In this document: positions 34,711 to 45,121 of the stretch, in pieces | How the letters are laid out: each line of letters begins with the position of its first letter | How positions within the stretch are numbered: the first letter of the stretch is position 1 | Position numbers and translations under genes: made by a program | Assembly (NCBI GenBank): GCA_012516825.1 | Contig: JAAYWF010000208.1 | Span: 1 to 45,509 of the forward strand | Direction: 5' to 3' | Source of the DNA: Lentimicrobium sp. | Lineage (GTDB): Bacteria; Bacteroidota; Bacteroidia; Bacteroidales; 4484-276 | Length of the DNA: 45,509 nt | Notes under the pieces: model-generated | Told to the model about the DNA's origin: nothing | The model's database searches: none | The model's input: only the letters and a program-made list of their open reading frames with translations

Positions 34711-36282
34711 ATGGCAAAAAAACAAGTAAAAGAGAAGGCGATAGAGGTTGCGTTGTGGGAATCGGCGAATAAACTACGTGGAAGTGTAGAACCTTCGGAA
34801 TACAAACACGTAGTGCTAGCATTGATTTTTTTGAAATTTGTGAGTGACAAATTTGAAGAGCAACGAAAAAAACTAATCGAAGGCGGAAAAGAGAAATATA
34901 TAGAAAGACCGGAATTTTACAATATGAACAATGTCTTTTTTCTGAAAGAAGAAACTCGTTGGTCATACATTGTGAGCAAATCCCGTCAAAACGACATCGC
35001 GCTGATAATCGACACCGCTTTGCACACCATTGAAAAAGATAACAAAGCTTTGAAAGGTGCTTTGCCGGACAACTATTTTTCCCGTCTCGGACTTGACACA
35101 TCCAAATTAGCCGCTCTTATCAGCGAAATTGACAGCATAGATACACTGAAAGACAAGGAGCAAGACGTTATCGGGCGTATTTACGAGTATTTCTTGGGTA
35201 AATTTGCAATTGCCGAAGGGAAAGGAAAAGGTGAGTTTTACACACCCAAAAGCATTGTGAATCTGATTGCTGAGATGATTGAACCGTACAAAGGAGTAAT
35301 TTACGACCCTTGTTGCGGTTCAGGCGGAATGTTTGTGCAATCCATCAAGTTTATCGAGGCGCATCACGGCAATAAAAAAGAGGTTGCCATTTACGGACAG
35401 GAATATACCAATACCACCTACAAGCTGGCGAAAATGAACCTTGCCATTCGGGGAATCTCTGCCAATCTTGGTGAAAGAGCCGCTAACACATTCAGCAACG
35501 ACCTGCACAAAGACCTGAAAGCTGACTTTATTATGGCAAATCCGCCTTTTAATCAAAAAGATTGGCGAGCAGAAAATGAACTTTTGGATGATCCCCGTTG
35601 GAAAGGATACGAAATACCACCCACAAGCAACGCCAATTACGGTTGGATACTCCACATGGCCTCCAAACTCTCTGACCATGGCGTAGCCGGATTTCTTTTG
35701 GCAAATGGCGCCTTAAGTGGTGGCGGTGACGAATACAAAATTCGCAAGCAACTAATTGAAAATAATTTGGTGGAAGCTATCCTGATTTTACCGCGAAACA
35801 TGTTTTATACCACAGATATAAGTGTAACACTTTGGATATTAAACAAAAACAAAAAAGAGACCGTTCGGAAAATTGGAGACGAAACAAGAAATTACCGAGA
35901 CCGACAAAAGGAAATTCTTTTTATGGATTTACGGGAAATGGGCAAGCCTTTCGAGAAAAAATATATCCAATTCTCAGATGCAGATATTCAAAAAATTACC
36001 GAAACGTATCATAGTTGGCAGCAAATTGATTGGAAATCTACTTATAAAGATATTCCCGAATTCTGTTATTCCGCAAGTATCGAAGAAATAAGAGAGAAGG
36101 ATTATTCGCTTGTGCCGAGCAGATATATTGAGTTTGTTAATCGGGATGAAGAGATTGATTTTGATGAGAAAATGAAAAGTTTGCAGCGGGAAATAGGAGA
36201 ATTGTTACAAGAAGAAAAAAAATCTCGCAATGAGTTGCTACGTGTTTTTGAAGACTTAGGTTTTAAAATTGAGTTAAAATGA
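34711..36282 (+). CDS. hsdM: Type I restriction-modification system, DNA methyltransferase subunit M
   Basis: 523 aa. HsdM_N-type N-terminus (LWESANKLRGSVEPSEYKHVVLALIFLKFVSD), SAM motif I DPCCGSGGMF, and catalytic motif IV NPPFN. Confidence 0.95.
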   Translation: MAKKQVKEKAIEVALWESANKLRGSVEPSEYKHVVLALIFLKFVSDKFEEQRKKLIEGGKEKYIERPEFYNMNNVFFLKEETRWSYIVSKSRQNDIALIIDTALHTIEKDNKALKGALPDNYFSRLGLDTSKLAALISEIDSIDTLKDKEQDVIGRIYEYFLGKFAIAEGKGKGEFYTPKSIVNLIAEMIEPYKGVIYDPCCGSGGMFVQSIKFIEAHHGNKKEVAIYGQEYTNTTYKLAKMNLAIRGISANLGERAANTFSNDLHKDLKADFIMANPPFNQKDWRAENELLDDPRWKGYEIPPTSNANYGWILHMASKLSDHGVAGFLLANGALSGGGDEYKIRKQLIENNLVEAILILPRNMFYTTDISVTLWILNKNKKETVRKIGDETRNYRDRQKEILFMDLREMGKPFEKKYIQFSDADIQKITETYHSWQQIDWKSTYKDIPEFCYSASIEEIREKDYSLVPSRYIEFVNRDEEIDFDEKMKSLQREIGELLQEEKKSRNELLRVFEDLGFKIELK

Positions 36283-38312
36283 AAGAAAAACAACTAAACC
36301 TTTTTGAGTTGGGTGGTGAGTATGATATCTACTCACTTATCAACGATGAGTTTTTGCCGGAAGAGTACCACGAAATTGAATATAAATCCGGCAAAGACGG
36401 TTTCCCGAAAGAATTTTGGAAAACATATTCTGCCTTTGCCAACACCAATTCCGGAATTATTGTTATAGGGGTAAAAGAGAAGAGAGGAGTTTTTTCGATT
36501 GAGGGATTAACAGACGAGCAAATTTCAAAATATAAAAAGCATTTTTGGGATAACTGCAATAACCCGAATACTGTCAGTGTTAATCTTTTGAGCAATGAAG
36601 ATATAAAAGTTGTTGAGATTAAATCTAAAAAACTGCTGGCTATCAGGGTTCCTTTCGCTCACCGTACTCAAAAACCTGTTTTTCTTACACGAAATCCATT
36701 AGGAAATACTTACAAACGCAACCATGAAGGTGACTACCGATGTACCGATGACGAAGTGAAAAGAATGTTGGCTGATGCAGTTGCTGAACTTAAAAGAGAT
36801 AATCTGCTATTGGAGAATTTTACGATAGAGGATTTAGACCCCGTTAGCATTCGTCAGTTCCGTCAACTGTTTTCATCTACTAAGCCGGGGCATGCTTGGC
36901 TCAGTTTGGAAGATAAAGAACTATTGAAAAAAATCGGTGCTTATCGTATTAACCGAAAAACCAAGCAAGAAGGTATTACGCTTGCCGGATTGTTGATGTT
37001 CGGCAAAGAAGACAGTATTCGCGAGCAGGAAGCCTTACCCGATTATTTTCCTGATTTTAGAGAACGTTTGTCTATGGATGAAAAGGTACGATGGACAGAC
37101 CGTATTTATCCGGACGGAACTTGGGAATGTAACCTACTTCAGTTTTATTTAAAAGTGTGGCCCAAATTATCATCCACACTACCCAAACCATTCCATTTAG
37201 AAAAAGATGAACGTATTGATGAAACGCCTGCCCATGTTGCTCTGCGTGAAGCTTTTGTAAATTCATTGGTACATACAGATTATTCGTTAAGTGGAAATAT
37301 TATCATAGAACTTGATACGGAAAAGTTTGTATTTTCCAATCCGGGGACCCTTCTTGTTTCATTGGAACAGTATTACGCGGGAGGAGTAAGTGAATGTCGT
37401 AACCCTGCACTACAAAAAATGTTTATGCTGATTGGGCGTGCCGAAAAAGCAGGTAGCGGAGCAGATAAAATTATAAGCGGCTGGCAAGCTTCTCACTGGC
37501 GAAGACCCTACCTTGAAATTGAAAATCAGCCGGATAGAGTAAAGCTTACTTTGCCTATGTTTAATGTATTGCCTGAACAGGTACACAATGAACTGAACAC
37601 TATTTTTGGTGATTTAAGCCATTTTACTCCCGAAGAATTAGTTGCACTCTCTTTTAGCTTGATAGAAGGCTCTACTTCCAATCACCGTTTACAGTACGCA
37701 TTAAATATGCATAGTTCAGATATTACAAAAATGCTGAAAAAAATATGTGTGGACGGTTATTTGGAAGCTGAAAATTACGGTCGTTGGACTACGTATAAAA
37801 TAAAACCTAAGCTTGCAAGCTTAGACACAAACCTTGCAACCTCAGGTAGAAAGGTTGACACCTCAGGTGGCAAGGTCGCAAGCTTTGATAGAAAGGTTGA
37901 CACCTCAAGTAGCAAGGTTGCAAGCTTACGTGATAGAAACCTTGCTACCTCTGGCAGAAAGGTTGCAACCTCTAAAAAACGTGCTGATAATCAAGGAGAT
38001 GGCGGAGAGAAGGTTGCAACCTCTGAAAGAAAGGTTGCAACCTTACAAGATAGCAAGGTTGCAACCTTAGCTGAACTTCCCCAAAGAATGAGCGTAAAGA
38101 AAATGGAAAATATAATTATGCGAATTTGTAAGGATAATTACGTTAAAAAAGAAGAGCTTGCAGAACTATTAAACCGTTCGGAAAATTATATCAGAAATAA
38201 AATTTTACCGAGAATGCTAAAAGATGGAAAATTAGAGAAAAAATACCCGTTTACGCTTAATCATCCCGAACAAGCCTATAAAACCACAGAAGAATATGCA
38301 GAAAAACTATAA
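36279..38312 (+). CDS. AlbA_2 (Schlafen-like) + HATPase_c_4 (RecG-C-terminal-like) + repeat linker + wHTH protein
   Basis: 677 aa. N-terminal AlbA_2 pattern (EYHEIEYKSG...AFANTNSGIIVIGV...LAIRVPF...PVFL...YKRNHEGDYRCT). The central region (ALREAFVNSLVHTDY...NPGTLL...RNPALQKMF..IGRAEKAGSG) is typical of the HATPase_c_4 domain. Next come 11 KVATS-like repeats and a C-terminal helix-turn-helix-like tail. The ATGA start overlaps the hsdM stop. Confidence 0.75.
   Translation: MKEKQLNLFELGGEYDIYSLINDEFLPEEYHEIEYKSGKDGFPKEFWKTYSAFANTNSGIIVIGVKEKRGVFSIEGLTDEQISKYKKHFWDNCNNPNTVSVNLLSNEDIKVVEIKSKKLLAIRVPFAHRTQKPVFLTRNPLGNTYKRNHEGDYRCTDDEVKRMLADAVAELKRDNLLLENFTIEDLDPVSIRQFRQLFSSTKPGHAWLSLEDKELLKKIGAYRINRKTKQEGITLAGLLMFGKEDSIREQEALPDYFPDFRERLSMDEKVRWTDRIYPDGTWECNLLQFYLKVWPKLSSTLPKPFHLEKDERIDETPAHVALREAFVNSLVHTDYSLSGNIIIELDTEKFVFSNPGTLLVSLEQYYAGGVSECRNPALQKMFMLIGRAEKAGSGADKIISGWQASHWRRPYLEIENQPDRVKLTLPMFNVLPEQVHNELNTIFGDLSHFTPEELVALSFSLIEGSTSNHRLQYALNMHSSDITKMLKKICVDGYLEAENYGRWTTYKIKPKLASLDTNLATSGRKVDTSGGKVASFDRKVDTSSSKVASLRDRNLATSGRKVATSKKRADNQGDGGEKVATSERKVATLQDSKVATLAELPQRMSVKKMENIIMRICKDNYVKKEELAELLNRSENYIRNKILPRMLKDGKLEKKYPFTLNHPEQAYKTTEEYAEKL
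37807..38070. repeat. Array of about 11 palindromic AAG[G/C]TTGCAA[G/C]CTT-type units inside the CDS
   Basis: Perfect palindromes: CTAAGCTTGCAAGCTTAG (37807-37824, 18 bp), AGGTTGCAACCT (37960-37971 and 38011-38022), AAGGTTGCAACCTT (38031-38044 and 38055-38068). Degenerate or hybrid copies lie between them, for example AAGGTTGCAAGCTT at 37914-37927. The units encode K[LV][AD][ST] repeats. Confidence 0.9.
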
Positions 38313-39429
38313 GCGATTAGGCGAATACATACAACAGGTGGACGAAAGAAATTCCAATTTGGAAGATTTGCCTTTAATGGGGCTAAGTGTTCAAAAAATG
38401 TTTATTCCGTCCATAGCTAATACGATTGGCTCAAATATGGCAAACTACAAAACAATCTACAAAGATCAATTTGCTTATATTGCTGACACTTCACGACGTG
38501 GTGATAAAATTGCAGTTGCTCTTTTTAAAGACTATGAGAAGGCTTTAATCTCACAAGCATATACAACTTTCGAGATTACAGATACCAAAAAACTTATCCC
38601 GGAATATTTAATGATGTGGTTTAGTCGTCCTGAATTTGATAGGTATGCCAGATATAAAAGCCATGGAAGTGTAAGAGAGATTTTTTCTTGGGAAGAAATG
38701 TGTGATGTAATGGTTCCCATTCCCAATATTACCCAACAACAAGCACTTGTAGATGAATACCAAACCATAGAGCGACGAATACAAATAAACGAACAACTCT
38801 GCCAAAAATTAGAAGAAACAGCACAAGCTCTCTACCGAAAATACTTTGTAGAAGATATCGATACGGAAGATTTGCCGGAGGGGTGGAGATGGGGGAAGTT
38901 GGAGGAAATTGCTACAATTACAATGGGACAATCGCCTATGGGAGAAAGTTATAATATTGATGGAATAGGAGAAATATTTTATCAAGGTAGAAGTGATTTT
39001 GGAATGCGATTTCCAACAATTAGAATGTATACAAATGAGTCAACCAAAATGGCAAAGAAAGATGATGTTTTATTAAGTGTAAGAGCCCCAGTTGGAGATA
39101 TTAATATTGCACCACATAACTGTTGTATCGGTAGAGGACTGGCAAGTATAAGGAATAAGAAAAAACATAAATCCTACATATTTTATTTGACAAAGAATCT
39201 AGATGAAATATTTAATGTAGCTGATGGAGAAGGTACAATTTTTGGAAGTATTGATAGAAATACACTTTTAAACATTGATGTAATAATTCCAGATGAAGAA
39301 ACTGTTGAATTATTTGAAGGAAAAGTTTCATCTATTGACAGGTTATATAAATATAATGATCTAGAAATTAGAATATTAAAAAAAACACTATCTTTGCTGT
39401 TGGCAAAGATGGGGAGAAAGGAGGATTAG
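38296..39429 (+). CDS. hsdS: Type I restriction-modification system, specificity subunit S
   Basis: 377 aa. Two target-recognition domains are separated by a central coiled-coil conserved region (QQQALVDEYQTIERRIQINEQLCQKLEETAQALYRKYF), with a C-terminal conserved helix (LEIRILKKTLSLLLAKM). LPEGWRWGKLEEI opens the second TRD. The start overlaps the upstream gene by 17 nt. Confidence 0.9.
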   Translation: MQKNYKRLGEYIQQVDERNSNLEDLPLMGLSVQKMFIPSIANTIGSNMANYKTIYKDQFAYIADTSRRGDKIAVALFKDYEKALISQAYTTFEITDTKKLIPEYLMMWFSRPEFDRYARYKSHGSVREIFSWEEMCDVMVPIPNITQQQALVDEYQTIERRIQINEQLCQKLEETAQALYRKYFVEDIDTEDLPEGWRWGKLEEIATITMGQSPMGESYNIDGIGEIFYQGRSDFGMRFPTIRMYTNESTKMAKKDDVLLSVRAPVGDINIAPHNCCIGRGLASIRNKKKHKSYIFYLTKNLDEIFNVADGEGTIFGSIDRNTLLNIDVIIPDEETVELFEGKVSSIDRLYKYNDLEIRILKKTLSLLLAKMGRKED

Positions 39430-39431
39430 TT

Positions 39432-39854
39432 ATGACACATTTTGAGAAACTTGATAAATTATTAATGGGTTTAATGTCAAGAGTAAAACATCAAATGTCA
39501 GGAAATTCTGAAAATCCCAAACTAACATTTGATTTTCTTTGTGATGTCTTGTTGAAAGATGAAGGAATTGAGGATTGGGAAAAGCAGTTTTTGCAAAATC
39601 GTTTAATGAGCGATGGTTTTTTATCTTTTGATATTGTTAAAGGCATTTCAATTCCAAACATCACTCAAAAAGGAATTGAGTTTGTACAAAAAGGGGGATA
39701 TAGGAAATTACAAGAAAAAGAGAAATTGTTTGAAGAAGTTCAAATTTCAACAATAAAAAGTAATAATAGGAGTAAGTGGGCACTGATTGTTGCGATATTA
39801 TCTTTGATTATTACATTGATGTTTAATATTATAATCTTACTTCTTGATAAATGA
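39432..39854 (+). CDS. Small tail-anchored membrane protein, function unknown
   Basis: 140 aa. A soluble N-terminal region of about 115 aa contains ...PNITQKGIEFVQKGGYRK, possibly a wHTH wing. A single C-terminal hydrophobic helix (WALIVAILSLIITLMFNIIILLL) ends 2 residues before the stop. A canonical AGGAGG (39419-39424) lies 7 nt upstream of the ATG. No family was recognised. Confidence 0.6.
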   Translation: MTHFEKLDKLLMGLMSRVKHQMSGNSENPKLTFDFLCDVLLKDEGIEDWEKQFLQNRLMSDGFLSFDIVKGISIPNITQKGIEFVQKGGYRKLQEKEKLFEEVQISTIKSNNRSKWALIVAILSLIITLMFNIIILLLDK

Positions 39855-40936
39855 AACTACAAAATAGAATAAGAGACTTGTTTAAAAAAGATGGAAAAGG
39901 TTATTTGATAAAAAGAGAAAGCCATAACCTTGAATTTAAACAGAATTTTCAATTAGGGGACAACTTGTTGAAATATATCAAAACATTAGCCGGCATGGCT
40001 AATAATAAAGGTGGTATTATTCTATTTGGTATTCAAAATAGTCCACATATTCCAATAGGCATGACTAATAATCGTTTCACAGAAACTGATCCGGCAAAAA
40101 TAGATAGAAATATTAGGGAATATTTTTCTCAAGAATTAAAATGGAGTTCATTTATTCATAAAGAAGAAGATAAGGAGTTTGGGATATTGATTGTAAATGA
40201 AAGTGATGAGAAACCTGTTATTTGTAAAAAGAATGGAAGTGATGTGTTAAGAGAAGGTGCTATTTATTACAGATATAGAGCGGAAACAAAAGAAATTGAA
40301 TACCCTGAATTAAAAAAAATTCTTGACCATGAAAAAGAAAAAGAAAGAAATCTATGGATTAAACATATTGAAAAAATATCACATATAGGACCGAAAAATG
40401 TGCATTTATTAGATAGCTATACAGGCGAACTATTTGTGGGAAATGGGAAAATTCTTTTAAATGAAGAGTTATTAGACAAACTGAAATTTGTTAAAGAAGG
40501 GAGTTTTACGGAAAAAGAAGGCGAAGGTTTACCTACATTAAGACTTGTTGGCGATATTGATGGTGTTGTAGATACTTCAATCACAATTAAACCAGATGTC
40601 ATTTATCCATTAACCACAGCTGATTTACAAAGAAAATTAAATTTAAATCAATATGAAATTCAAGCAGTTATTTCAAAACTTGATATAAAGAATAAGCCTA
40701 AATATCATACTGCTATAAGAAGTGGCAAACAAACACAAGTTCATAAATACTCAGAAAATTTGGTTGATATTCTAGAAAGGATGATGCAAAAAGAAAGTTT
40801 TTTGCAAGATTGTATAAGCGAATATAAAGTAAAACAAGCTGAAATTCGTGAAAGTAAAAAAGCAAATCTTAATATTAAAAAGCGTAATAAAAAAAACATA
40901 AAAATCAATGACCAACAGCGAAATAATTCTTTATAA
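39851..40936 (+). CDS. Short AlbA_2 (Schlafen-like) domain protein with an uncharacterised C-terminal half and a basic tail
   Basis: 361 aa. AlbA_2 pattern RESHNLEFKQN...LAGMANNKGGIILFGI...FGILIVNESDEKPVICK...REGAIYYRYRAET. The C-terminal 190 aa or so are unassigned, and the tail is lysine-rich (KKANLNIKKRNKKNIK). ATGA overlap with the upstream gene. Confidence 0.65.
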   Translation: MKLQNRIRDLFKKDGKGYLIKRESHNLEFKQNFQLGDNLLKYIKTLAGMANNKGGIILFGIQNSPHIPIGMTNNRFTETDPAKIDRNIREYFSQELKWSSFIHKEEDKEFGILIVNESDEKPVICKKNGSDVLREGAIYYRYRAETKEIEYPELKKILDHEKEKERNLWIKHIEKISHIGPKNVHLLDSYTGELFVGNGKILLNEELLDKLKFVKEGSFTEKEGEGLPTLRLVGDIDGVVDTSITIKPDVIYPLTTADLQRKLNLNQYEIQAVISKLDIKNKPKYHTAIRSGKQTQVHKYSENLVDILERMMQKESFLQDCISEYKVKQAEIRESKKANLNIKKRNKKNIKINDQQRNNSL

Positions 40937-41906
40937 AAACTCGGAAGGTAATATTAAAATAGATGTTCGGCTCGAAGATGAAACCGTTTGGCTTACGCAA
41001 GCGCAGATTTGCGAATTGTTTCAAAAATCAAAAGCTACTGTAAGTGAACATATTAAAAATATATTTGAAGAGGGAGAGTTGAATGAGAATTCAGTTGTTC
41101 GGAATTTCCGAACAACTGCTTCGGATGGTAAAAACTACGATACCAATTTTTACAATCTCGACGTAATTATTTCTGTTGGTTATCGGGTAAAATCGCCACA
41201 AGGTACGCAGTTTCGTATTTGGGCAACCCAAAAACTGAAAGAATACATCATCAAGGGTTATGCACTGAATGATGAGCGTTTCAAAACAGGAACTTCGATG
41301 AATTATTTCAACGAACTGCAGGAACGCATCCGCGCAATTCGCCTTTCGGAGAAATTTTTCTACCAAAAAATCAAAGACATTTACACTACGAGCATCGACT
41401 ACGATCCCAAAGATGAAAAAACCATTGAGTTTTTTAAGGTAGTCCAAAATAAACTACTTTGGGCAATCAGCGAGCAAACGGCAGCCGAATTGGTGTATCG
41501 GCGTGCAGATGCAAGTTTGCCTATGATGGGAATGCTTTCTTACGACAAAGAGCAGGCTACTTCTATCAAAAAATCGGAAGTAAGTATTGCCAAAAACTAC
41601 CTGAATGAAGACGAGATGAAGTTACTTGGGCTTTTGGTAGAGCAATATTTGGCTTTTGCCGAAACAATGGCACAACAACATATACCCATGTATATGAAGG
41701 ATTGGATTGCTCGGTTGGATATTATTTTGAAACTAAACGGCAGAGAATTACTTACTCATGCAGGTAAAATATCTCATCAGTTGGCATTGAAAAAATCGGG
41801 AGAAGAGTATGAAAAATTCAAGAACCGACAAAAAGCGATTGAAAAAGCAACGAGTTTGAAAGAATTAGAAGAAGACATTCTCAAACTAAAAAAATCAAAG
41901 TCATGA
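40908..41906 (+). CDS. RhuM-family (Virulence_RhuM) protein
   Basis: 332 aa. The N-terminus EIILYKNSEGNIKIDVRLEDETVWLTQAQICELFQKSKATVSEHIKNIFEEGEL...VIISVGYRVKSPQGTQFRIWATQ is characteristic of the RhuM family. It overlaps the upstream gene by 29 nt, and its stop overlaps the hsdR start (ATGA). Confidence 0.85.
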   Translation: MTNSEIILYKNSEGNIKIDVRLEDETVWLTQAQICELFQKSKATVSEHIKNIFEEGELNENSVVRNFRTTASDGKNYDTNFYNLDVIISVGYRVKSPQGTQFRIWATQKLKEYIIKGYALNDERFKTGTSMNYFNELQERIRAIRLSEKFFYQKIKDIYTTSIDYDPKDEKTIEFFKVVQNKLLWAISEQTAAELVYRRADASLPMMGMLSYDKEQATSIKKSEVSIAKNYLNEDEMKLLGLLVEQYLAFAETMAQQHIPMYMKDWIARLDIILKLNGRELLTHAGKISHQLALKKSGEEYEKFKNRQKAIEKATSLKELEEDILKLKKSKS

Positions 41907-44900
41907 AATTCACCGAACATAAACTCGAAACCACCTTTATCCAACTGCTATCGGAAAAGGGCTATATGCACAGCACGGGTGTATCGGTGCCACGTGCTTC
42001 GGTGGATGAGGCGCTGATAGAAGATGATTTGCGGCGGTTTTTGTTGTCACGGTATCAGGCAGAAAACTTGACGGGAAATGAGGTAAATTCCATTATTTTA
42101 CAACTAAAATCCCTTCCTGCAAGTGATTTGTACGAAAGCAACAGGCGGTTTATGCAGATGCTTTCGGACGGTTTTATTCTGAAAAGGGAAGACCGCACGC
42201 AGAAAGATATCTATATTGAGCTTATTGATTACAGAGGATTGGAAAAACAGCTACAACTTGGCCCTGAAATGGCTATTATCCTGGCTGCGGATAAAGATGA
42301 AGAAGACTACTCACCCGATAAGAATATTTACAGATTTGTAAACCAAATGGAAATCGTGGGTACCGAAAAACGTATTCCCGACGGAATTATTTACGTAAAT
42401 GGTTTGCCTTTAGTGGTTTTTGAATTTAAGACAACCATTGAGGAAAATACCACTATTCATGATGCTTACAAACAACTTACGGTACGTTATCGTCGTGATA
42501 TTCCCGTGCTTTTTAAGTACAATGCTTTTTGCGTTATCAGCGACGGTATAAACAACAAGGCGGGTTCGTTTTTTGCCCCTTACGAATTTTATTATGCATG
42601 GCGAAGAGTGGCAGGTTCGGCAAAAGATGCTGAAGGCATCAGCAGTATGTTTACATTAATTAAAGGAATGTTTAATAAAAACCGTTTTCGGGATATCCTT
42701 CGCAACTTTATCTTTTTTCCCGACACGGGAGATAAAGAAACGAAAATTGTTTGTCGCTATCCGCAATATTACGCTGCTCGGGCTTTGTTTGAAAATATCA
42801 AGCATGAGCAAAAACCGCACGGTAACAGTAAAGGCGGAACCTATTTCGGCGCTACCGGCAGCGGCAAAAGTTTCACGATGCTTTACCTGACCCGCTTGCT
42901 GATGAAAAGCGAACATTTTGCAAGTCCTACGATAGTACTGATTACAGACCGCACCGATTTAGACGACCAACTTGTGGCACAATTTATCAATGCCAAGAAA
43001 TTCATCGGCGACGACACGGTACAAAGCGTCGAAAGCCGTACTGATTTACGTGAAAAACTACAAGGCAGACAAAGCGGAGGCGTTTTCCTTACCACCATCC
43101 AGAAATTTACCGAAGATACGGAACTACTTACCAAACGTAGTAATGTGATTTGCATTTCGGACGAAGCACACCGTACACAAACCAATCTTGAGCAAAAAAT
43201 CACTATTACCGAACAGGGTGTTATTAAATCGTATGGCTTTGCCAAATATCTGCACGATTCATTGCCCAATGCCACTTACGTAGGTTTTACAGGAACACCC
43301 ATAGATGCTACTTTGGATGTTTTCGGTCCGGTGGTGGATGCCTACACCATGACTGAATCGGTTCGTGATGAAATCACTGTGCGCATCGTTTACGAAGGCA
43401 GAGCTGCTAAAGTGGCGTTAGATAATAGTAAATTAGAAGAGATTGAACGTTACTATGAAGCAGCTGCGGAAGCGGGAGCCAATAAATACCAAATTGAACA
43501 AAGTAAAAAAGAGACTGCCAAGATGAATACCATCCTTGGCGACACGAAACGTTTACAGAATGTTGCCGAAGATTTTGTTGCTCATTACGAAAAACGTGTT
43601 TTGGAAAAAGCATCGTTGAAAGGCAAAGCAATGTTTGTTTGCAGCAGCAGAGAAATCGCTTACGAATTATTTAAGCGAATTATAGCTCTTAGACCCGAAT
43701 GGAACGAAATACGTGAAGCAGATGAAGATGCAGAACTTTCCGACAAGGATAAAAAGGAGTTGAAACCGATTGAGCGTATAAAAATGGTAATGACCCGCTC
43801 AAAAGACGACGAGAAAGAACTTTGGGATTTGTTAGGAACAAAGGAAGACAGAAAAGAGCTCGACAGACAATTCAAAAATGAGAAATCTAACTTTAAAATC
43901 GCTATCGTGGTGGATATGTGGCTCACAGGCTTCGATGTGCCTTCTTTAGACACTATTTACATTGACAAGCCAATTCAACAGCATAGTTTAATACAAACTA
44001 TTTCGCGGGTCAATCGGAAAGTGGAAGGTAAACACAAAGGTCTTGTGGTAGATTATATTGGAATAAAAAACAAAATGAATTTAGCGCTTGCACAATACGA
44101 TAAAATGGACGGCAAAAATTTTGAGGATATTTCTCAATCGCTCGTAATTATGCGCGACCATTTGGATTTGCTAAAACGCCTGATGCACAAGTTTGATGAT
44201 ACAAAATATTTCAAAGGTTTTGCTTTGGAACAGCTGAATACGCTGAATATGGCAGCCGAATTTGCACAGCAAACCAAAGAGACGGAAACTCGATTTATGG
44301 GATTAACAAGACGATTGAAAGCAGCTTATGATATTTGCGTGGGAAGCGAGCAAATAACGCAGGAGGAGCGAGACCATGTGCATTTTTATATGGCCGTTCG
44401 CTCTATTATTTTCAAGTTGACTAAAGGTGATACTCCCGATGTGGTACAAATGAACAACCGTGTGCGTGAAATGATTGAAGAAGCTTTGCGAAGCGACGGA
44501 GTGGAGGAAATCCTGAAAATCGGTGAAGATGCCAAAAGTGAACAGGATTTGTTTGACGGAGCCTATTTGGCTAAAATCAATAGGATAAAGCTACCCAATA
44601 CGAAAATCAAACTTTTGCAAAAACTATTGACAAAAGCTATTGGGCAATTACGAACAGTAAACCGCCTGAAAGGAATTGATTTCAGCCGCAGGATGCAACA
44701 ATTGGTAGAGCAATACAACAACCGTTCGGCGAATGATATTTTGCGAAGCGAGGTATATGAAGAAATGGCTGAACAACTTACCAACTTGATTTGGGATGTT
44801 CACAAAGAGTTTACTGCCGGAGAAGAATTGGGAATTGACTTTGAAGAAAAAGCCTTTTATGATATACTAAAAGAGCTGTGCGTGAAATACGATTTCACAT

Positions 44901-45121
44901 ATCCGGACGACAAAATGATATTATTGTCTAAAAAGGTAAAAGAGTTAGTGGATAGCCAATCCCGTTATCCCGATTGGAATAAGCGTGAAGATATAAAATC
45001 GGCATTGAAAGTGGGATTAATTTTACTGCTTGATGAATACAATTATCCACCCGTTGAACAAGATGAAGTTTATGTAGAAATCTTTGAACAAGCGGAGAAT
45101 TTTAAGAAAAATAGGGTATGA
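41903..45121 (+). CDS. hsdR: Type I restriction-modification system, endonuclease/translocase subunit R
   Basis: 1072 aa. N-terminal PD-(D/E)xK nuclease (IPDGIIYVNGLPLVVFEFK). SF2 motifs GATGSGKS, ISDEAHR, GFTGTPI and QTISRVNR. The C-terminal helical domain with ...FEEKAFYDILK... is typical of the HsdR C-terminal (DUF3387-like) region. Confidence 0.95.
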   Translation: MKFTEHKLETTFIQLLSEKGYMHSTGVSVPRASVDEALIEDDLRRFLLSRYQAENLTGNEVNSIILQLKSLPASDLYESNRRFMQMLSDGFILKREDRTQKDIYIELIDYRGLEKQLQLGPEMAIILAADKDEEDYSPDKNIYRFVNQMEIVGTEKRIPDGIIYVNGLPLVVFEFKTTIEENTTIHDAYKQLTVRYRRDIPVLFKYNAFCVISDGINNKAGSFFAPYEFYYAWRRVAGSAKDAEGISSMFTLIKGMFNKNRFRDILRNFIFFPDTGDKETKIVCRYPQYYAARALFENIKHEQKPHGNSKGGTYFGATGSGKSFTMLYLTRLLMKSEHFASPTIVLITDRTDLDDQLVAQFINAKKFIGDDTVQSVESRTDLREKLQGRQSGGVFLTTIQKFTEDTELLTKRSNVICISDEAHRTQTNLEQKITITEQGVIKSYGFAKYLHDSLPNATYVGFTGTPIDATLDVFGPVVDAYTMTESVRDEITVRIVYEGRAAKVALDNSKLEEIERYYEAAAEAGANKYQIEQSKKETAKMNTILGDTKRLQNVAEDFVAHYEKRVLEKASLKGKAMFVCSSREIAYELFKRIIALRPEWNEIREADEDAELSDKDKKELKPIERIKMVMTRSKDDEKELWDLLGTKEDRKELDRQFKNEKSNFKIAIVVDMWLTGFDVPSLDTIYIDKPIQQHSLIQTISRVNRKVEGKHKGLVVDYIGIKNKMNLALAQYDKMDGKNFEDISQSLVIMRDHLDLLKRLMHKFDDTKYFKGFALEQLNTLNMAAEFAQQTKETETRFMGLTRRLKAAYDICVGSEQITQEERDHVHFYMAVRSIIFKLTKGDTPDVVQMNNRVREMIEEALRSDGVEEILKIGEDAKSEQDLFDGAYLAKINRIKLPNTKIKLLQKLLTKAIGQLRTVNRLKGIDFSRRMQQLVEQYNNRSANDILRSEVYEEMAEQLTNLIWDVHKEFTAGEELGIDFEEKAFYDILKELCVKYDFTYPDDKMILLSKKVKELVDSQSRYPDWNKREDIKSALKVGLILLLDEYNYPPVEQDEVYVEIFEQAENFKKNRV

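Follow-up and report, generated by a model that had tools for sequence, protein, structure and literature searches.

Two overlapping genes inside a type I restriction-modification (R-M) operon raise a simple question: do they make up one defence module, or are they two accessory genes that have come to lie side by side? The locus lies at positions 39432-40936 of a 45,509-nucleotide stretch of DNA from a Lentimicrobium-like Bacteroidota genome, hereafter the window; positions are those of the window unless another locus is named, and all genes of the operon are on the + strand. The first gene, TM140, encodes a protein of 140 amino acids (aa) with a C-terminal transmembrane (TM) anchor, and the second, AlbA2s, a 361-aa protein with an N-terminal AlbA_2/Schlafen domain. 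An earlier note on this DNA had treated them as a two-gene unit in which an AlbA_2 sensor would gate a membrane partner. Both open reading frames (ORFs) lie where that note had placed them, the TM140 stop and the AlbA2s start overlapping in an ATGA at 39851-39854, and their nesting between hsdS and a RhuM gene was confirmed by ORF and Pfam analysis:

39432..39854, + strand: TM140, a 140-aa membrane protein, predicted to be a tail-anchored winged helix (ORF, AlphaFold2 (AF2) model)
39851..40936, + strand: AlbA2s, a 361-aa protein assigned to the prokaryotic Schlafens (pSlfn) (ORF, Pfam SLFN_AlbA_2)

Both are real genes, since each has conserved homologous clusters (more than 390, matching over the full length, for AlbA2s and 86 for TM140). 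In public annotation they figure as 'hypothetical protein' (NLH33869.1) and 'ATP-binding protein' (NLH33870.1), respectively, and copies identical to the window operon are present on numerous metagenome contigs as well as in Lentimicrobium sp. records of metagenome-assembled genomes. Our results do not support a dedicated module of TM140 and AlbA2s. On balance, and with moderate confidence, we favour the view that they are two independently distributed accessory defence genes, neighbours by chance, with AlbA2s acting as a PrrC-like back-up tRNase.

Co-occurrence of the two genes across lineages

The pair was confirmed in the window lineage and in a Dysgonamonadaceae-type operon, where TM140 is 69% and AlbA2s 77% identical; a third pair-bearing lineage (P0002/P0125), deduced from contigs of equal size, probably exists as well. 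Among the pair-bearing operon versions, identities are 69-86% for TM140 and 77-95% for AlbA2s. At the confirmed loci hsdM, hsdS and hsdR, and usually also the gene for a second Schlafen-type protein of 677 aa, are orthologous too, which makes the pair one inherited arrangement, the product of one evolutionary event.

Searches seeded with either gene gave the same picture. When one genome per species was scanned for AlbA2s, 57 loci were obtained, none of which has a TM140-family ORF within +/-8 kb in a TM140 profile search, and no small TM protein stands immediately upstream of AlbA2s in any of the 36 loci surveyed for it. An AlbA2s profile, for its part, found nothing in the TM140 lineages outside the pair-bearing operon lineage. 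Conserved co-occurrence across independent lineages was not observed, and the pair proposed as a module at first reading is confined to orthologous copies that belong to a single operon lineage. This is essentially the outcome that the earlier note had named as one that would speak against its own reading.

The closest sister operon, locus L013 (8001-11604), is instructive in this respect. It resembles the window operon in hsdM (89% identity), the 677-aa gene (81%), hsdR (87%) and TM140 (79%); TM140 is kept, and a 1012-aa Ppl/MADS-like ABC ATPase, with SMC_N/AAA_21 domains and Ppl/mad3-like matches in PADLOC, replaces both AlbA2s and RhuM. Given this swap, the stretch from TM140 to hsdR behaves as an exchangeable cargo slot.

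These data bear directly on the possibility that TM140 and AlbA2s form a dedicated abortive-infection system, with an AlbA_2 nucleic-acid sensor that would gate the membrane protein or be tethered by it. Such a system would sit well with the ATGA translational coupling and with the retention of the pair in three diverged operon versions, the third of them a probable one. Moreover, both genes have an equally low GC content (28.4% for TM140 and 28.3% for AlbA2s; 23% and 18% at third codon positions), the dip covering exactly 39432-40936, compared with 37-40% in hsdM, RhuM and hsdR. At locus L105, finally, a single-pass membrane protein of 188 aa (1086-1652; an N-terminal TM helix and a helical soluble part) stands in the equivalent position, the order being hsdS, the 188-aa protein, a 65%-identical AlbA2s homologue and RhuM; compared with the TM140 family, this protein proved to be unrelated. 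However, a single evolutionary event accounts for all pair loci, neither TM140 nor a small membrane protein just upstream accompanies AlbA2s in the loci surveyed with it as seed, no fewer than ten further TM140 lineages do without AlbA2s, L013 retains TM140 beside a Ppl-like ATPase, and the AlbA_2 domain carries the motif of an effector RNase, which does not suit a sensor (PMC13056530). We therefore regard a dedicated two-gene system as quite unlikely.

Kiwa (KwaA/KwaB) and RexA/RexB are defence pairs composed of a membrane protein and a soluble partner, and a small membrane component beside a nucleic-acid-binding protein recalls this idea. Unlike in these systems, TM140 is a single-pass, tail-anchored protein and not a multi-pass one, and the pairing is not conserved; PADLOC gave no match in the window to the pair as a known system of this kind. 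The earlier statement that no named defence system fits thus holds for the pair; it does not hold for AlbA2s alone, which now falls into a published class.

The Schlafen protein AlbA2s

Five features of AlbA2s are used below:

39917..40297, + strand: predicted Schlafen/AlbA_2 RNase-type domain, residues 23-149 (Pfam PF04326, E=1.9e-15)
39917-39940, + strand: Ex4ExK motif, E23-K30 (alignment)
40037-40039, + strand: codon 63, encoding Asn (alignment to SLFN13 D248)
40592..40786, + strand: predicted C-terminal winged-helix-like domain, residues ~248-312 (AF2, partial PADLOC PDC-S19 match)
40799..40933, + strand: long basic C-terminal helix or tail, residues 317-361 (ORF, alignment, AF2)

The AlbA_2/Schlafen domain and the basic tail had both been recognised at first reading, and both are present. 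By sequence and modelling, AlbA2s is a pSlfn with a predicted RNase-effector domain, an assignment made because four lines of evidence agree: the Pfam AlbA_2 match, structural matches to Schlafens, the alignment of its motif with SLFN11 and SLFN13, and the invariance of E23, E28 and K30. An AF2 model built on 41 homologues is confident at residues 1-125 and 250-350. With its N-terminal domain, Foldseek returned the RecG-related AlbA_2 domain 2kyy, SLFN13 (5yd0), SLFN12, SLFN14, SLFN5 and SLFN11, each at a probability of 1.0, and the SAMD9 tRNase was also matched. In the family profile, the segment RESxxLE(F/Y)K aligns with the ES..IEFK segment of SLFN11 and SLFN13, and the three residues E23, E28 and K30 are found in 41/41 family sequences. 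The motif Ex4(E/D)xK is the catalytic motif that defines bacterial Schlafen RNases (PMC13056530), and the pSlfns with this motif that have been tested are tRNA-cleaving enzymes that protect against phage (PMC13056530; PMC13462974). Moreover, the pSlfns characterised so far use the Schlafen domain as their RNase effector, and sensing is presumed to fall to the domains fused to it (PMC13056530, PMC13462974). The idea of AlbA_2 as the sensor is at odds with this use of the domain and with the invariant Ex4ExK.

In the C-terminal half of the AF2 model, the block 251-350 has a predicted local distance difference test (pLDDT) of 82-92 and an H-H-beta-beta-H pattern. Residues 251-330 match positions 277-354 of the 357 positions of the PADLOC model PDC-S19 (E=2.4e-9); no full-length match was obtained, and in three PDC-S19 models only the last ~80 positions match. 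By this comparison, AlbA2s and PDC-S19 appear to have only a C-terminal module in common; a literature search for the name 'PDC-S19' gave no match. Pfam contributed a weak EC042_2821 match at the C-terminus, under the curated cut-off, and a profile of residues 150-361 gave no meaningful match among PDB sequences. The idea that AlbA2s might be a truncated form of the 677-aa protein was also considered and was dropped, since hhalign of the C-terminal half against the corresponding part of the longer protein was not significant (probability 0.85%).

Compared with described pSlfn nucleases, AlbA2s has the N-terminal Schlafen fold, the invariant Ex4ExK, the layout of a single-polypeptide effector with a fused domain and the enrichment beside R-M and other defence genes. 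It differs in its fused part, which is neither Ig-like, DUF262, Csx15 nor GHKL and consists of a conserved middle without a recognised relative, the winged-helix-like domain and the basic tail. As far as its sequence goes, it appears to fit the Schlafen cluster published in 2026 as 'R-M-associated, unknown C-terminal domain'. It would thereby add a large Bacteroidota subfamily of ~335-aa proteins, laid out as an Ex4ExK domain, a conserved unknown middle and a winged-helix-like C-terminus, to the prokaryotic Schlafen defence nucleases described in 2025-2026; the R-M-linked group to which it belongs had already been noted.

At 90% identity, the family falls into more than 390 clusters, the majority from Bacteroidota, with proteins of ~335 aa that are conserved end to end. 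A Pfam scan of two ORFs on each side at 41 species-level loci revealed 13 Methylase_S and 7 N6_Mtase proteins upstream and 9 proteins with HsdR domains downstream, as well as AbiH, reverse transcriptase, McrBC, Fic and more AlbA_2+HATPase_c_4 genes. About 30% of species-level loci adjoin hsdS. In eight species-level loci, 8/57 of the scan and 8 of about 41 with surveyed flanks, homologues of the window's hsdS and hsdR enclose AlbA2s, six times directly, and in these embedded loci no membrane gene, indeed no gene at all, intervenes upstream. The type I genes are more distant in a few further loci, one homologue stands alone in an island that also holds GmrSD, ParE, HipA and a type II R-M system, and another sits in a generic context among transporter genes. 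A scan of viral contigs found no AlbA2s relative. Genes for R-M and other defence functions are thus enriched around the family, and TM140 homologues likewise lie next to defence genes, in line with the defence association proposed at the outset for both.

Could the two genes be passengers without a role in defence? AlbA2s, with its AlbA_2 domain, winged-helix-like domain and basic tail, would then control the R-M operon as a DNA-binding regulator or a nucleoid-type protein, and TM140 would be a small membrane protein unrelated to it. AlbA_2 proteins have long been annotated as DNA-binding proteins or transcriptional regulators, both proteins carry winged-helix-like modules, about 30% of pSlfns lie away from known defence genes (PMC13056530), and the homologue among transporter genes stands alone there. 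A mere DNA binder would nevertheless have no need of an invariant catalytic Ex4ExK, the family is enriched beside hsdS, hsdR, AbiH, GmrSD and other defence genes, and the pSlfns tested so far are phage-defence RNases (PMC13056530, PMC13462974). We consider this explanation very improbable.

TM140 and its neighbourhoods

39432..39695, + strand: predicted cytoplasmic PadR/MarR-like winged-helix domain of TM140, residues 1-88 (AF2, Foldseek)
39777..39845, + strand: C-terminal TM anchor of TM140, W116-L138 (Kyte-Doolittle hydropathy 2.96 over 19 residues)

The C-terminal TM anchor described in the earlier note was found again, W116-L138 having a hydropathy of 2.96, but it is not the only clear feature of the protein: residues 1-88 are modelled with high confidence as a winged helix. 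The AF2 model (mean pLDDT 92.7) has helices at 3-22, 33-40 and 48-60, wing strands at 64-69 and 72-77 and a helix at 79-86, followed by a single continuous helix at 89-139, whose last 23 residues form the TM anchor; only two residues follow the anchor. A juxtamembrane motif, TIKSNNRSKW, which is invariant among close homologues, precedes it, and these basic residues before the TM segment indicate, by the positive-inside rule, that the winged helix should face the cytoplasm.

Only winged-helix proteins were matched by Foldseek in the PDB, among them SSV1 F-93, TubR, PadR Rv3488, LmrR, MarR and AspA, with probabilities of 0.92-1.0 (hits 1-20) and E of about 1e-2; the PadR matches (Rv3488, LmrR, 3l7w, 1xma) have probabilities of 0.92-0.98 at E ~1e-2, and matches in BFVD were to TubR and generic winged helix-turn-helix (wHTH) proteins. 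The modelled fold is PadR-like, while membership of PadR is not shown, as no PadR profile matches. Like short PadR proteins, TM140 is predicted to have the order alpha1-alpha2-alpha3-wing followed by a long C-terminal helix; unlike them, this helix continues into a TM anchor, the winged-helix domain is mildly acidic and there is no PadR or other Pfam match. A likeness to proteins of the ToxR/CadC type lies in the cytoplasmic wHTH tethered by a single TM segment, and the difference is that TM140 of the window is without a periplasmic sensor domain.

TM140 had no match in Pfam, PADLOC, NCBIfam or PHROGs, and tblastn against phage and plasmid collections gave none either; a Pfam scan of 40 family members yielded scattered one-off weak matches and no recurring family. 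Word-index protein searches found only 7 and 18 proteins, and it was an exhaustive profile search that revealed the family: 86 representative clusters, 41 of them below 1e-10, of ~130-190 aa. An alignment of 10 closer sequences was used for the metagenome scan. The family alignment shows an MTxxEKLD N-terminus, a W-E...L...DGYI...T..G..F.Q.GGY pattern, the basic juxtamembrane motif and a single hydrophobic helix; in ~40% of the aligned members an extra coiled-coil tail extends beyond the membrane segment. Public gene calls mostly start at M12 (window 39465), giving 129 aa. We favour the 140-aa start because MTxxEKLD is conserved in the family and because an AGGAGG lies six bases upstream of 39432. 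From these models, TM140 appears to represent a small undescribed family of tail-anchored winged-helix membrane proteins.

The genomic context of TM140 could be read in about 12 lineages, many contigs being short. In at least ten lineages outside the window operon lineage, other defence genes flank it. TM140 homologues precede AbiLi and AbiLii, once again within a type I operon, follow a type III Res protein or an HNH protein, lie near two caspase-like genes, or stand downstream of UvrD and RES-like genes, with a Panacea-type antitoxin alongside. In three lineages, one of them on an IMG/VR viral contig, a DUF2971 gene (PADLOC PDC-S31) is followed after 3-12 nt by a TM140 homologue:

L089, 1883-3064: DUF2971/PDC-S31 gene and TM140-family gene
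L099, 6969-8420: DUF2971/PDC-S31 gene and TM140-family gene
L100, 5574-7025: DUF2971/PDC-S31 gene and TM140-family gene
L107, 1-1452: DUF2971/PDC-S31 gene and TM140-family gene

These two genes may be a recurrent pair in their own right. The TM140 family is associated with defence islands and its partners vary widely; since it is found beside such a range of unrelated defence genes, it cannot be called a partner specific to AlbA2s. Undescribed, absent from four profile libraries and found beside at least six unrelated types of defence gene, the family could be screened functionally at little cost, whether for autonomous defence or for a regulatory role.

The variety of partners also invites another interpretation, namely that TM140 is an interchangeable part that serves the cargo slot in general, as a membrane-anchored winged-helix regulator, silencer or sensor for whichever toxic effector adjoins it (a pSlfn, an ABC ATPase, AbiL, DUF2971 or Res), AlbA2s being one client among others. 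TM140 is kept at the left edge of the slot and the downstream cargo varies (AlbA2s with RhuM, AlbA2s alone, a Ppl-like ATPase, AbiLi/ii), and in most of the informative lineages TM140 is co-oriented with a defence gene from a few bases to ~200 nt away. Low GC is common to TM140 and its adjacent cargo in three operons; in L013 and L008 a dip similar to that of the window spans TM140 and its different neighbour. Moreover, the coiled-coil tail of ~40% of the aligned members might serve to monitor the envelope, in the manner of one-component regulators like ToxR. Against these points, the partners have no common fold or position, TM140 lying upstream of some and downstream of others, its retention may simply be a by-product of where recombination breakpoints fall, the winged helix lacks a basic character and the readable contexts come from about 12 lineages. 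We hold a generic role of this kind to be possible but rather unlikely. A bolder version, to which we give slightly less credence and which should be read as speculation, is that TM140 represents a new kind of defence-island component, a shared inner-membrane sensor, licensing factor or silencer for interchangeable effectors of the types just listed, stationed where phage DNA enters; in the present operon, it would then couple membrane events to the Schlafen tRNase.

A possible mechanism and the rest of the operon

In the reading that we favour, that of two independent accessory genes, both would sit as cargo in the hsdS-hsdR slot of the type I operon. AlbA2s would remain latent and be switched on in phage infection. 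Its N-terminal domain would act as the RNase effector, with E23/E28/K30 as the site, and its middle region, winged-helix-like domain and basic tail would form the presumed sensor, nucleic-acid-binding or oligomerisation part. The C-terminal part might sense a phage cue or mediate an activating oligomerisation, as in RorSlfn5 and CbCash (PMC13462974). Once activated, AlbA2s would cut tRNA and arrest translation, as a second line behind restriction. TM140 would be a tail-anchored, probably dimeric, PadR-like winged helix at the inner membrane face. Our best guess for it is an autonomous membrane-tethered regulator or sensor, and this is the weakest part of the account. Observed are the genes themselves, their domain folds, the conservation of the motif and the patterns of distribution and neighbourhood; RNase activity, tRNA as the substrate, the trigger and whatever TM140 does are inferences.

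The frequent placement of AlbA2s inside type I operons suggests a PrrC-like back-up of restriction. PrrC is an anticodon nuclease (ACNase) in the EcoprrI type Ic R-M locus (PMC1484252; PMC3458546), and AlbA2s resembles it as a predicted tRNase inside a type I R-M operon. The PrrC type is kept silent by the R-M complex and switched on by an anti-restriction factor. By analogy, AlbA2s might lie dormant as a back-up and come into play once restriction is inhibited. However, AlbA2s is not a member of PrrC, because it has neither the ABC ATPase nor the ACNase domain and because its R-M linkage is partial: PrrC combines an ABC ATPase with a distinct ACNase domain and shows no homology to AlbA2s, and prrC is always linked to R-M genes, as opposed to only ~30% of AlbA2s homologues. 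With two Schlafen genes and RhuM in one type I R-M operon, the locus is a handy place to ask whether Schlafens guard restriction as PrrC does.

Several observations count against the account that we favour. About 70% of the AlbA2s family lack type I R-M genes as neighbours, and a PrrC-like coupling therefore cannot be obligatory. The middle of the protein (residues 127-245) is poorly modelled by AF2. Position 63 aligns with the third acidic active-site residue of Schlafens, the catalytic D248 of SLFN13 and D252 of SLFN11, and is Asp in 33/41 relatives and Asn in 8/41, including the window copy, which in this respect is unlike SLFN13; judging from the alignment, the nuclease of the window copy may be attenuated owing to N63. 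As to TM140, its winged helix is mildly acidic (family median pI 5.8), which is atypical for a DNA-binding regulator. The translational coupling of the two genes, their equally low GC and the unrelated membrane protein upstream of the Schlafen homologue at L105 belong to the same side of the balance.

The remaining genes of the operon are as follows:

34711..36282, + strand: hsdM, operon frame (Pfam N6_Mtase 5e-106, HsdM_N)
36279..38312, + strand: second Schlafen-type gene, 677 aa, AlbA_2 + HATPase_c_4 (GHKL) + wHTH (Pfam)
38296..39429, + strand: hsdS, specificity subunit, left border of the cargo slot (Pfam Methylase_S)
40908..41906, + strand: RhuM-family gene, PADLOC candidate PDC-S05, further cargo (Pfam 3e-101, PADLOC 1.7e-135)
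41903..45121, + strand: hsdR, restriction subunit, right border of the cargo slot (Pfam HSDR_N, SWI2_SNF2, T1RH-like_C)

In all, the R-M operon has seven genes, with dnaK upstream. ORF and Pfam analysis showed that neighbouring genes in it either overlap or stand 2 nt apart, which marks it as an operon without intergenic space: hsdS stops at 39429, with two bases left to the TM140 ORF, and the 3' end of AlbA2s overlaps the RhuM start by 29 nt.

The site between hsdS and hsdR is known to collect defence cargo, such as DarTG2 in the RRDM island of enteropathogenic Escherichia coli (PMC12255303) and PrrC (PMC1484252), and insertion at this site has provided PDC candidates through 'guilt-by-embedding' (bioRxiv 10.1101/2024.01.29.577857). 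The present cargo resembles them in that RhuM corresponds to PDC-S05, the DUF2971 protein adjacent to TM140 elsewhere to PDC-S31, and the C-terminus of AlbA2s to that of PDC-S19. It differs in that PADLOC v2 has no model for TM140 or for full-length AlbA2s. A further type I operon packed with cargo, L094 (2137-13941), contains in order hsdM, a Fic/Bro-N protein, hsdS, a 233-aa protein with two TM helices, a 461-aa protein of unknown nature, a TM140 homologue, AbiLi, AbiLii and hsdR.

The 677-aa Schlafen gene had not been weighed in the earlier note. Its product has its own Ex4ExK motif (E29, E34 and K36 in a pairwise alignment to AlbA2s) and is only ~21% identical to AlbA2s. Its architecture matches the HisKinase-HTH class of pSlfns (PMC13056530), a HisKinase-like ATPase with a helix-turn-helix (HTH) being the commonest pSlfn architecture (PMC13056530). 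A single type I R-M operon thus holds RhuM and two distinct pSlfn architectures; in the sister locus L106, the 677-aa gene is missing. Inside this gene, at 37839-38069, there are tandem repeats of 21/42 nt and 24 nt, which encode (R/G)KV(A/D)TS-like peptides placed between the wHTH modules of the protein. Orthologues range from 617 to 677 aa, and these length differences may reflect variation in repeat number.

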